A DNA stretch of 64,000 bases from a virus. Taxonomy: Duplodnaviria; Caudoviricetes. Numbering within the stretch: position 1 is the stretch's first letter; the number at the start of each line of letters is the position of its first letter. Below are positions 30,607 through 53,693 of this stretch, one piece after another. A program made the position numbers and the translations under genes. The stretch is from IMG/VR virus record IMGVR_UViG_3300035676_000001, one strand, 5' to 3'. The notes beneath the pieces are model-generated. The model was not told the origin of the DNA. It searched no databases and worked only from the letters and a program-made list of their open reading frames with translations.

Positions 30607-30638
30607 TGGGTTTTCCCATATCTTATATTTATTTTTTA

Positions 30639-30711
30639 TAGCGGTGGTGGGATTCGAACCCACCCTTGAACGATTTTAAGTCGTTTGCCTCTTCCGCTGG
30701 GCTACACCGCC
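30639..30711 (-). tRNA. trnL: tRNA-Leu(TAA)
   Basis: GGCGGTG acceptor, AACGA-CTTAAAA-TCGTT anticodon arm, GTGGG-TTCGAAT-CCCAC T-arm; 5-nt variable loop. Confidence 0.9.
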
Positions 30712-30725
30712 AAGTGTATGAGACC

Positions 30726-30754
30726 ATTATAACTCATAGAGTTGTAGTGGTCAA
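30726..30754 (-). promoter_or_regulatory. sigma70 promoter directly upstream of tRNA-Leu
   Basis: TTGACC-17-TATAAT. Confidence 0.75.
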
Positions 30755-30755
30755 G

Positions 30756-30828
30756 TGCCCGTTGTCGGTTACGATCCGACCTTCTATCTGTTATGAGCAG
30801 ATCGCCTTCACCAGAGGGCCAAACGGGC
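30756..30828 (-). tRNA. tRNA with CAT anticodon (Met or Ile2), atypical T-loop
   Basis: GCCCGTT/AACGGGC acceptor, ATCTG-CTCATAA-CAGAT, GTCGG-ATCGTAA-CCGAC. Confidence 0.85.
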
Positions 30829-30982
30829 AAGTGGGAGAGATCCATACAATAGAACAGAAGGTCACCGATAAGTCATAGGTCTGTTCCGCACCGACTCATG
30901 GCTGGGGTTTTTCACTCTCCCTTTTTCAAGTAGGTTTACTGTTGCTTACCCTCTAAAACCCACTACAAAATGGGTAAGCAGA
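30829..30982 (-). ncRNA. Structured RNA between tRNAs (manA-motif candidate)
   Basis: Stems TGCTTACCC/GGGTAAGCA, GGGAGAG/CTCTCCC, CCAT/ATGG, GGAACAGA/TCTGTTCT; family assignment from memory only. Confidence 0.6.
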
Positions 30983-31054
30983 TAGGAACACTGGGAGTTG
31001 AACCCAGACTAACCCGTTATAAGCAGGCCGCTCTAACCATTAAGCTATGCTCCC
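30983..31054 (-). tRNA. trnI: tRNA-Ile(TAT)
   Basis: GGGAGCA acceptor, GCCTG-CTTATAA-CGGGT, CTGGG-TTCAACT-CCCAG. Confidence 0.9.
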
Positions 31055-31483: not shown

Positions 31484-31512
31484 ATTATAGGGCAGATGGG
31501 GGCGGGTGTCAA
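31484..31512 (-). promoter_or_regulatory. Consensus sigma70 promoter
   Basis: TTGACA-17-TATAAT. Confidence 0.85.
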
Positions 31513-50502: not shown

Positions 50503-50529
50503 AAAAAAAGGAGGGTATCAACCCTCCTT
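50503..50529 (-). terminator. Rho-independent terminator
   Basis: GGAGGG-TTGATA-CCCTCC then T7. Confidence 0.8.
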
Positions 50530-50533
50530 AATC

Positions 50534-50635: not shown

Positions 50636-50662
50636 AGGTCTGCTCCTTTACTTGGGTAAAGT

Positions 50663-50707
50663 GCGTTCCTTCCCGTGATGGTACTTCCGTCGCATAGCGA
50701 TGAACGT
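50663..50707 (-). promoter_or_regulatory. Glutamine riboswitch (glnA / class I motif)
   Basis: CGTTCA-[TCGC TAT GCGA]-CGGAAGTA-[CC ATCAC GG]-GAAGGAACGC matches the glnA three-way-junction pattern. Confidence 0.85.
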
Positions 50708-50788
50708 GAATTTATTTATTATAACATATTTTAAAAAAACCTTCGCGTGAGAAAATTTTGCCGGAAAAATTTCCCCCGATATTTGAAA

Positions 50789-51993: not shown

Positions 51994-52231
51994 TTCTTTT
52001 TCTCCGGGAAACTACTTTTCTTTTCCTCGACTTAAAGGAAAACTCAAAATAGATGGTTACCTCCCGATTTAGAAAGCAAACCATCTTCTCAAAGATGATA
52101 TGGAAGGGCTGGGTCTGCTTTCTTTTTCCTCCATTAAGTATCAATTCAATACCACGATTAAAGTGGTCTTCCTTTTTATTTAGGTTCTTATCAGACAATT
52201 TGCTTCTCTTTGAGGAATTTGATGGTCTCAA
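51980..52231 (-). CDS. Conserved cyanophage small protein (start uncertain)
   Basis: NRGIELILNGG. Confidence 0.6.
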   Translation of the reverse strand: MRPSNSSKRSKLSDKNLNKKEDHFNRGIELILNGGKRKQTQPFHIIFEKMVCFLNREVTIYFEFSFKSRKRKVVSRRKRNVSN

Positions 52232-52427
52232 CGGAACCTCCTAACTTCTGGTCGTCACATACTACTTGGGGGAAAGTAGAACCTTTACCAAATTCAGAAT
52301 AGAACTCGTCGCGGGTAAAGTCTTCACCCAAAGTATACACCACAAAGTTACTATTTGTCAATTCAAGAACCTGTTTGACTTTATAGCAATAAGGGCAATC
52401 TTCTTTCGAATAGACAGTAAAATTCAT
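52191..52427 (-). CDS. grx: Glutaredoxin
   Basis: CPYC, TFPQV, GG. Confidence 0.92.
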   Translation of the reverse strand: MNFTVYSKEDCPYCYKVKQVLELTNSNFVVYTLGEDFTRDEFYSEFGKGSTFPQVVCDDQKLGGSVETIKFLKEKQIV

Positions 52428-52460
52428 TGTTTCTTATAATTTTATAATAATTTATAATAG

Positions 52461-52560
52461 AAAAAAGGAGGGTATAAAACCCTCCTCAGTAACCACCAAC
52501 TCACCTCTCCCACCACAGAGAGGGTCTTCATTCCCAAAGTTACAAGGAATAATTGAAGAC
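52461..52560 (-). ncRNA. Candidate ~100-nt small RNA
   Basis: Consensus promoter 52567-52595, two hairpins, terminator 52461-52485. Confidence 0.6.
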
Positions 52561-52566
52561 TTGAAT

Positions 52567-52627
52567 ATTATAAGGTATTTTGAATCAGATGTCAAGGGTT
52601 GACAAGGTATGACTTTATAAGTAGACT
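52567..52627. promoter_or_regulatory. Back-to-back sigma70 promoters
   Basis: Minus: TTGACA-17-TATAAT; plus: TTGACA(52599)-17-TAGACT; -35 boxes form TGTCAA-GGG-TTGACA. Confidence 0.75.
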
Positions 52628-52664
52628 CGGTTTGTTGCCGTTGAAGACAAGTTATAAGTCTTTA

Positions 52665-53693
52665 TTATCCTATTAAATAACCCCAGAATGTTGAATGCCC
52701 CGTATAAAAAGAAATACTACTTGGATTACCTGTTCTCGGTTTTATTCCAACAGTATCATTTGCAGATAATTCTAAAATAACGCTACCATTTAACATAATA
52801 TTTGCTGGAGTAGTAGATGAGTTTGTATTCATAAAAATATTAATAGCAGCATCACTACCATAATCCAATTGAGTTCCGTTTTTCCACCAAGTTAATGAAC
52901 TAATGACTGAATTTGGATTCAAATATAACTGAACATAAAATTGATATAATCCTGCTACTGGTGCAGTATAGAGATAAGTTGAGGTATTATATCCAGAATT
53001 TCTATTGCTATTGGCAAATGTTGTATTTAGTGTGTTAAATGGAAAATAACTACCAACGGCAACCGTTATAGTGCCTTGATTACCACTAGCAAGAAATGCT
53101 GGTTGATAAGGCATTTTTACCCTACCACTTGAATCTATAACAAGACGTTCTCTCCATGTAGAATCAGTTCCAAGTTGAGTTATTGAATAGTAGTTACCCG
53201 CATTTGCAAGTCCTGGACTTGATGTTCCTGCTGTCCATTCTGCAGTAGTATTTGAATTGGTATAACGAATGGTATTACTATTACTTGTTAATTGGTGCCC
53301 TATAGTACCTCCTGATCCGGAAGTGTGAAGTAAATAACTTGGATTTGCGGTTCCTATACCTAACCGACCACTACTATCAAACCTAGCCGATTCAGCACCA
53401 CCTTCACCAAACGCTATGGTATCAGCACTGGGAAAAAATATACCAGTGTTTGAGTCTCCACTTGGACTTATTGATGGTGAAGAAGTGGTTCCTGCAGAGA
53501 CTACAATGCCACTAGAAAACGTAGAAACTCCAGAAGAACTTAAAGTATTATTACCAATCTTAATCGTTCCTGACTGAACATCCAAAGCACTCGTTGGTAC
53601 TGACGTTCCGATACCGACTCTACCAGTGGAGTCCTGATAGACTCCGCCAGTACCAGATTGATGTAACCAACGATTGACTCTTATATCGGACAT
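52665..53693 (-). CDS. Fibre/receptor-binding protein with C1q-like tip
   Basis: GRVGIGT repeats; PYQPAF...YTAPVAGLYQF...LELSANDTV. Confidence 0.75.
   Translation of the reverse strand: MSDIRVNRWLHQSGTGGVYQDSTGRVGIGTSVPTSALDVQSGTIKIGNNTLSSSGVSTFSSGIVVSAGTTSSPSISPSGDSNTGIFFPSADTIAFGEGGAESARFDSSGRLGIGTANPSYLLHTSGSGGTIGHQLTSNSNTIRYTNSNTTAEWTAGTSSPGLANAGNYYSITQLGTDSTWRERLVIDSSGRVKMPYQPAFLASGNQGTITVAVGSYFPFNTLNTTFANSNRNSGYNTSTYLYTAPVAGLYQFYVQLYLNPNSVISSLTWWKNGTQLDYGSDAAINIFMNTNSSTTPANIMLNGSVILELSANDTVGIKPRTGNPSSISFYTGHSTFWGYLIG

Follow-up and report, generated by a model that had tools for sequence, protein, structure and literature searches.

Bacteria and phages have trans-acting small RNA genes that carry their own sigma-70 promoter and a Rho-independent terminator, as in the case of the prophage-encoded DicF. 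To our knowledge, roles have been established for few of the small RNAs that phages encode, and freshwater cyanophages have yielded no characterised example; nor do we know of Hfq-type sRNA chaperoning having been established in picocyanobacteria, the hosts of interest here. Among the cyanophage RNAs represented in Rfam (the glutamine riboswitch, manA, wcaG and PhotoRC), the motifs are leaders of specific genes. Two further kinds of phage element are similar in layout. In phage HK022, putL comprises ~70 nt that form two stem-loops directly downstream of an early promoter, with terminators and early genes beyond them (PMC9378689). T4-type phages contain PeSLs, promoter/stem-loop cassettes at hyperplastic regions (PMC2839356, PMC4122927), which are short, recur many times within a genome and have the stem-loop first and the promoter after it.

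Here, we describe a locus that compares in part with each of these systems. It lies in a 64,000-nt stretch of DNA (the window) from an uncultured cyanomyovirus, whose nearest cultured relative, at ~74% identity, is the freshwater Synechococcus phage S-SRM01 (Kyanoviridae, Serangoonvirus). Like bacterial and phage trans-acting sRNA genes, it encodes ~100 nt under a consensus promoter of its own, is structured in its 5′ part and contains no ORF, and it combines a conserved single strand with an adjoining A/U-rich segment and terminator hairpin; yet neither sequence nor Rfam links it to any described sRNA. With HK022 putL and putR, it shares a ~70-nt stretch in which a bulged stem-loop has a second one next to it, placed after an early promoter, a likeness of architecture by description only. 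In contrast to the put sites, the terminator is here an integral part at a fixed distance, there is an additional conserved G-rich single strand, and the neighbouring genes have promoters of their own. A near-consensus early promoter with a stem-loop at the hyperplastic edge of a T4-like genome, tied to gene shuffling, recalls the PeSLs, and about one fifth of the copies have a short palindrome over the −35 box; unlike PeSLs, the unit contains a 72-nt conserved, covarying RNA between promoter and terminator and is present in one or two copies. It resembles the Rfam motifs of cyanophages in being a conserved structured non-coding RNA, but has its own terminator, occurs in varied contexts and is unmatched by those models. 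The reading we favour over that of a leader, with a probability of roughly 55%, is that the locus constitutes an independent gene, which specifies a ~100-nt non-coding early sRNA of freshwater T4-like cyanophages (Kyanoviridae, S-SRM01-like).

Anatomy of the locus

The whole unit of promoter, RNA and terminator occupies 52461..52595 on the minus strand of the window, with the ~100-nt RNA at about 52560..52461 (Table 1). An earlier note on this DNA, which had proposed a novel sRNA at 52461-52572, left the −35 box outside its coordinates. Its description was otherwise borne out: the TTGACA-17-TATAAT promoter is present on the minus strand at all 12 positions, and both hairpins, the G-rich single strand and the terminator were each found at the place where it had put them. 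The unit thus has its own promoter and its own intrinsic terminator, which enclose a short RNA without a conserved reading frame, and we infer that it yields a discrete RNA. With a minimum free energy (MFE) of −38.4 kcal/mol (z = −3.0), the 105-nt RNA folded better than all of its shuffled versions (0/200 folded as well). The loop of the second hairpin, GUGGUG, and the UGGUGGU of the linker share the words UGGUG and GUGGU.

Table 1. Coordinates of the RNA unit and of its downstream neighbour in the window
Feature	Position	Strand	Remarks
−35 box TTGACA	52595..52590	−	With the −10 box, 12/12 consensus positions
Inverted copy TGTCAA-CCC before the −35 box	52604..52596	−	6-bp palindrome over the −35 box (52590..52605)
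−10 box TATAAT	52572..52567	−	17-nt spacer; predicted start about 52561..52559
Hairpin P1, 5′ end of the RNA	52560..52524	−	Outer stem GUCUUCA/UGAAGAC, bulge, inner stem (A)UUCC/GGAA(U)
P1 loop UUGUAACUUU, conserved	within 52560..52524	−	Predicted fold and homologue comparison
Hairpin P2, abuts P1	52523..52504	−	CCUCUCU/GGAGAGG; conserved loop GUGGUG at 52516..52511
Linker UGAGUUGGUGGUUACU	52503..52488	−	Unpaired in the centroid fold; conserved core UGGUGGU at 52498..52492
Intrinsic terminator GAGGAGGGU-UUUAU-ACCCUCCUU, then U-run	52487..52461	−	9-bp stem
TATAAAT(T), T4-type late-promoter-like	52450..52456	−	Belongs to nrdC rather than to the RNA; motif comparison
nrdC (glutaredoxin, 78 aa)	52191..52427	−	Usual downstream neighbour; ORF
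TTGACA-18-TATACT promoter embedded in nrdC	52361..52332	−	11/12 match; codons Leu-Thr ... Tyr-Thr

A perfect TTGACA-17-TATAAT promoter occurs only twice in the 64-kb window. When one mismatch was allowed, 5 matches were found against 1.37 expected, a number that 0 of 100 shuffles reached. The other perfect promoter (31512..31484, minus strand) is located ~430 nt upstream of the first gene of a three-tRNA cluster on the same strand (Ile-tat, Met and Leu-taa at 31054..30638), a position that would fit strong promoters serving stable RNAs. Across the 75 distinct homologues compared, the promoter of the RNA is perfect in 60 and near-consensus in 73, the spacer is always 17 nt long, and the hexamers are kept while the spacer sequences differ. 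The modelled RNA begins 4-6 nt after the end of the −10 box, which places P1 at its extreme 5′ end.

Two further sequence features of the promoter and linker were seen in subsets of the homologues. The −35 box forms part of an inverted repeat, YGTCAA-N3-4-TTGACR, in 15-19 of the 75 distinct homologues and also in S-SRM01 (L001:1469-1486). The outer base of the repeat covaries, with TTGACG accompanied by CGTCAA and TTGACA by TGTCAA, and the repeat could represent an operator for a dimeric regulator or else a small hairpin located at the end of transcripts from upstream, in the manner of a PeSL-like composite. In about half of the homologues, the linker reads GGTGGTATAAT (e.g. L095:2131-2141), a perfect extended −10 element (TGnTATAAT) ~7 nt before the terminator stem; transcripts from it would miss the 5′ arm of the terminator and escape termination. 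We rejected such an internal extended −10 (TGGTATAAT) as a defining feature of the family, given that only about half of the homologues have one and that the window copy has TGGTTACTG instead.

Homologues in S-SRM01 and in uncultured phages

The corresponding position of S-SRM01, a gap without annotation upstream of the glutaredoxin gene, contains a homologue with the promoter TTGACA-17-TATGAT and with compensatory changes in all three helices relative to the window copy. S-SRM01 was the sole cultured carrier among the 50,697 phage records searched. The paper on the S-SRM01 genome does not mention the element, and our literature searches did not find it described. In IMG/VR, a pattern derived from the P2-linker region gave at least 120 matches, as did a pattern derived from P1 only, by which ~20 further variants were gained. 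A profile search of the fetched IMG/VR loci identified at least 152 full-length copies, at least 70 of them distinct. Using a covariance model, we detected one copy each in the window, in S-SRM01 and in the complete UViGs G001 (211 kb) and G002 (213 kb), two copies 42 kb apart in G003 and G004, which represent one lineage, and none in S-SKS1. The genomes with one or two copies are ~210-240 kb in size.

Outside these phages, the core pattern matched 5 times in 185,579 prokaryotic genomes, about the chance expectation, and 0 of these matches passed the covariance model. Searching the whole window with Rfam 15 at gathering thresholds returned only three tRNAs and the glutamine riboswitch (50660..50708), leaving the element unmatched, and a permissive search of 52300..52750 (E ≤ 10) returned chance-level matches only (11-20 bits against thresholds of 38-100). 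Judged by its sequences, the element is a real RNA family outside the families described in Rfam 15, with the window copy as its founding copy, and this family is widespread among uncultured relatives of S-SRM01. What is new is the RNA family itself; its kind, the small non-coding RNA of a phage, is already known.

Part of the unit has a counterpart elsewhere in the window: the terminator of the glutamine-riboswitch and 33-aa-peptide unit (50504..50530, minus strand), AAGGAGGGU-UGAUACCCUCCUUUUUU, is nearly identical to the sRNA terminator. This GGAGGG..CCCUCC type of terminator is also the source of short BLAST matches in many marine cyanophages (ACG-2014f, S-H34 and others).

Conservation of structure and sequence

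The earlier note had proposed a search for covariation and had named an unconserved structure as one outcome that would count against it. We found the opposite, in that a covariance model of the homologues revealed a structure kept by compensatory changes. In a model-guided alignment of 73 distinct sequences, 98.8% of the 1951 cells form standard pairs, compared with 92.9% in shuffles, and pairing falls to 50-69% when the 3′ partners are slid by 1-3 columns. Double compensatory changes are present at 14 of the 27 pairs (126 cells, compared with 29 in shuffles). In P1, these include C-G to U-A or G-C, A-U to C-G, G-C to A-U and, in the inner stem, C-G to U-A. P2 varies from CCUCUC/GAGAGG to CCUUUC/GAAAGG and to CCUCUUC/GAAGAGG, the latter with an insertion in both arms. 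Eight of the nine terminator pairs show double compensatory changes, with a mean hairpin MFE of −13.7 kcal/mol across homologues; the terminator is found in every full-length copy examined except L162 and starts at a fixed 4-6 nt past the linker. Divergent members fold independently to the same two hairpins and open linker. No covariation was seen outside the four helices, and mutual information is high at helix pairs only. Since the G-U pairs observed are valid on the transcribed strand only, selection appears to act at the level of RNA rather than DNA.

Sequence is conserved as well as structure. Over 30 distinct loci, with the window copy as the reference, the 72-nt core has a mean identity of 91%, while the same loci average 85%, 93% and 52% at the first, second and third codon positions of nrdC, 60% in the 150 nt upstream and 76% in the 40-nt promoter region including the spacer. 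The gap between 91% in the core and 52% at third positions argues that the unpaired stretches are constrained in sequence, beyond the stems alone, and points to purifying selection at the nucleotide level as strong as at first and second codon positions. This includes the G-rich motifs that had been described as exposed, both of which are unpaired and conserved even in homologues picked without regard to them: among homologues selected by P1, the P2 loop GUGGUG is kept in ~18/20 and the linker GGUGGU in ~17/20.

In agreement with the earlier note, we found no credible ORF. A 47-aa frame starts within the −35 box, and a 31-aa frame is disrupted in homologues, where 1-2-nt indels shift it and where its AUG is missing from S-SRM01 (ACG) and L054. 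Across the homologues, such 1-2-nt indels break all reading frames. It is because of these frame-breaking indels and the absence of the AUG from S-SRM01 and L054 that we exclude a peptide product. One specific case, a micropeptide or leader peptide that begins at an AUG in the 3′ arm of P1 and contains two successive Trp codons (UGG UGG), can be read from the window frame (MKTLSVVGEVSWW...) and from CCAC-insertion variants (MKTTSLWWER, then stop), so that two variant classes have the Trp pair in frame, and GUUGGUGG occurs in the E. coli trp leader too. However, a third variant class encodes MKTLFGGVKR (then stop), without Trp; the lengths and frames vary through the indels, the AUG is lost as above, and where present it is buried in the P1 stem without usable Shine–Dalgarno spacing. 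We therefore give such a peptide next to no credence and continue to regard the unit as a non-coding sRNA gene.

Neighbouring genes and the link to nrdC

Directly downstream of the RNA and in the same orientation, nrdC was found in 127 of 152 loci (among the matches listed). The upstream neighbours belong to at least 15 unrelated families, including fibre, glycosyl- and sulfotransferase and oxygenase genes, and by this gene content the unit appears to mark the border between a hypervariable region and core genes. The TATAAAT(T) motif is present in 126 of the 127 nrdC-linked loci, mostly with its start 27-31 nt before the ATG (36-39 nt in five), and is missing where the RNA does not adjoin nrdC. 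Within nrdC, the embedded promoter TTGACA-18-TATA(C/A)T retains TTGACA in 27/31 distinct genes and a −10 box of TATACT or TATAAT in 31/31, even though the third positions of nrdC are only 52% conserved and near-saturated; it probably drives genes beyond nrdC. With a TATAAAT motif of its own and an early promoter embedded for the genes that follow, nrdC appears to be independent of the RNA promoter.

Several loci depart from this arrangement. In L140, a second TTGACA-17-TATAAT comes immediately after the terminator and precedes a DUF7294 gene. In G003/G004, a promoterless copy is preceded by an 89-aa ORF, and after it come a new promoter and a collagen-like fibre gene; nrdC is found 6.6 kb from the nearer copy, directly after another gene. 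Copies of the L016 type lack a promoter of their own and lie inside an operon just before a terminator, and in L162, where the terminator is missing, the RNA runs straight into nrdC. The 6.6-kb cassette between RNA terminator and nrdC (G004:C1:16817-23797; also L058, L171) contains the collagen-like fibre gene and others, and nrdC of this lineage begins 5 nt after the preceding gene, with no promoter motif of its own.

These loci bear on the alternative that the RNA is a cis-acting leader, in which nascent P1, P2 and linker would act on the transcribing polymerase and cause read-through of the adjacent terminator into nrdC and beyond, either unaided, as HK022 put does, or together with a protein of phage or host origin, as lambda nut does with N and Nus factors. 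The short RNA would then be a by-product of unmodified complexes, and the element could time delayed-early or middle genes in phages that lack MotA and AsiA. Much of the layout suits this idea: the RNA begins at +1 of a strong early promoter; its ~72-nt core consists of two abutting stem-loops, the first bulged, followed by a terminator and then by co-oriented genes, a layout also described for putL (PMC9378689); and both its sequence and its structure are conserved. The 127 of 152 copies directly before nrdC (among the matches listed), the terminator-less leader of L162 and the promoterless L016-type copies within an operon point the same way. Against it, read-through is unneeded where nrdC has its TATAAAT motif and the downstream genes have the embedded early promoter; the terminator follows the linker by only 4-6 nt and covaries within the unit in nearly every copy; L140 has a full new promoter after it; one or two copies in a ~210-240-kb genome make no general early-to-middle switch; and truncated folds reveal no consistent antiterminator pairing. 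On balance, we consider a cis-acting leader the main rival, possible but doubtful, and its narrower form, a put/nut-like element that by itself or aided by a phage protein would render the RNA polymerase of cyanobacteria resistant to terminators, unlikely.

A second form of cis action would be a ligand- or tRNA-sensing attenuator (riboswitch or T-box-like) that gates early transcription of nrdC via the terminator. Here, a structured RNA does precede a terminator and then a nucleotide-metabolism gene. T-boxes rely on UGGN-NCCA pairing, and UGGUG complements the common CACCA-3′ end of tRNAs. Moreover, 22 of 70 homologues pair the 5′ arm of the terminator upstream when its 3′ arm is omitted. These alternative pairings use differing partners, though, and are absent from the other 48/70; the fold lacks a multi-helix junction and any pocket-like architecture, no Rfam riboswitch matches the element even at E ≤ 10, nothing covaries outside the four helices, a promoter-like motif intervenes between terminator and gene, and some copies are uncoupled from nrdC. 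We regard an attenuator as highly improbable, and the autonomous sRNA gene as the better account of these loci.

Partial copies of the unit were also observed. L006 (12583-12720, minus strand) has a second copy, consisting of the promoter, P1 and the 5′ half of P2, that is fused at GTGGTGG to a Gly-rich ORF of GGT-GGT repeats, and L161 (6444-6503) has the same partial fusion to a Gly-rich ORF. Either recombination via GGTGG microhomology or an assembly chimera could account for them.

One may further ask whether the conservation belongs to a DNA-level boundary or recombination module, a PeSL-like cassette or a set of Chi-like GGTGG words, with any RNA functionless and with the sequence kept alike by recurrent homologous exchange along the border of the variable fibre region. 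The element does lie exactly where variable upstream genes meet the conserved nrdC, and the partial copies of L006 and L161 are joined at GTGGTGG to an ORF with abundant GGT repeats. In addition, GTTGGTGG is what we take to be one base off E. coli Chi, GCTGGTGG. PeSLs, too, are promoter/stem-loop cassettes at hyperplastic regions (PMC2839356, PMC4122927), but these are defined by many copies, whereas the window, S-SRM01 and two complete UViGs have a single copy and one lineage has two. A DNA module also does not explain why compensatory changes keep the pairing, including G-U pairs valid only on the transcribed strand, why the hexamers are conserved and the spacer is not, or why conservation is higher in the core than in the promoter DNA beside it. 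A module of this kind is therefore very unlikely to be the whole explanation, although the element may serve as a recombination anchor by side effect.

Candidate partners

We compared the P1 loop, the P2 loop and the linker with both strands of the window using RNAduplex, and the best non-self energies did not leave the range spanned by shuffled seeds. The coding strands of the window, G001 and S-SRM01 contain few ACCACCA words, and on the gene-rich strand of these three sequences neither ACCACCA nor CACCAC was found close to a start codon. Given that no site in the window outperforms shuffled seeds and that no start codon has such a word nearby, the partner seems more likely to be a host RNA or a protein than a phage mRNA. 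The complementarity of UGGUG to the common CACCA-3′ tail of tRNAs is only a lead.

The two strands of the window are asymmetric for these words (ACCACCA, 28 versus 5; CACCAC, 41 versus 14), with the excess antisense to Gly-rich (GGT-repeat) fibre genes. The asymmetry, in the window as in G001 and S-SRM01, is due to runs of GGT glycine codons on the coding strand of fibre genes, and the GGUGG words of the sRNA therefore resemble the sense of fibre mRNAs and not their complement.

Other structures and interactions were considered and rejected. A pseudoknot of the P1-loop GUAAC with the linker GUUAC, or of UAACUU with GAGUUG, is contradicted by an A/U position in the loop that varies without covariation in the linker. 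A two-tier G-quadruplex, GGUGG-N12-GGUGG, loses the second GG of the loop in CCUUUC-type variants. As an anti-Shine–Dalgarno decoy, GAGGUGA would complement the 16S tail, but it turns into AAAGGUAAG and similar sequences in variants. For a Yfr1 sponge, only 5 contiguous pairs can be formed with ACUCCUCACAC, which we take to be the Yfr1 motif.

Discussion

We favour an autonomous sRNA gene because its terminator is integral and at a fixed distance and its consensus promoter, of a strength that recurs in this window only ahead of the tRNA genes, is conserved, because the neighbouring genes have promoters of their own, and because uncoupled and duplicated copies exist. In this model, host sigma-70-type RNA polymerase would fire from the consensus promoter straight after infection, and the transcript would start 0-2 nt before P1, giving a protected 5′ end. 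The RNA would fold into P1 and the abutting P2 and stop at the strong intrinsic terminator, which would protect the 3′ end, and the outcome would be an abundant, stable small RNA. Its working surfaces could be the P2 loop GUGGUG, the linker UGGUGGU and perhaps the conserved P1 loop UUGUA(A/U)CUUU, and these may pair with a host RNA containing CACCA or ACCAC, or hold a host or phage protein. The earlier note had read the locus as an early trans-acting RNA or RNA sponge driven by host polymerase, whose GGUGG motifs would pair with C-rich targets or bind a protein. The anatomy and the conservation sustain the first half of that reading, a discrete non-coding unit with a host-type promoter; trans action, a role of the GGUGG motifs in pairing or protein binding, and the identity of the partner are speculative.

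Some observations weigh against an autonomous sRNA. The linkage to nrdC in 127/152 loci also fits a leader, L162 lacks the terminator, and the L016-type copies lack the promoter. By analogy, the ~70-nt two-hairpin layout, which resembles that of HK022 putL (PMC9378689), may likewise be counted against it.

With many independent sequences, covariation, purifying selection and a conserved consensus promoter, the support is about the maximum attainable for a purely computational RNA candidate. The element is directly testable, since a cultured pair, S-SRM01 and Synechococcus sp. KCZYC6, carries it. If the put/nut-like reading were true, it would provide RNA-based timing of delayed-early genes in T4-like cyanophages, which lack MotA and AsiA, and would extend elements of this sort for the first time beyond lambdoid phages and their enterobacterial hosts. 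The element also marks a recombination-prone border at which cassettes of fibre and tailoring genes meet core genes. Whatever its mode of action, it appears to mark a conserved early function in widespread lake cyanophages and deserves an entry in Rfam.
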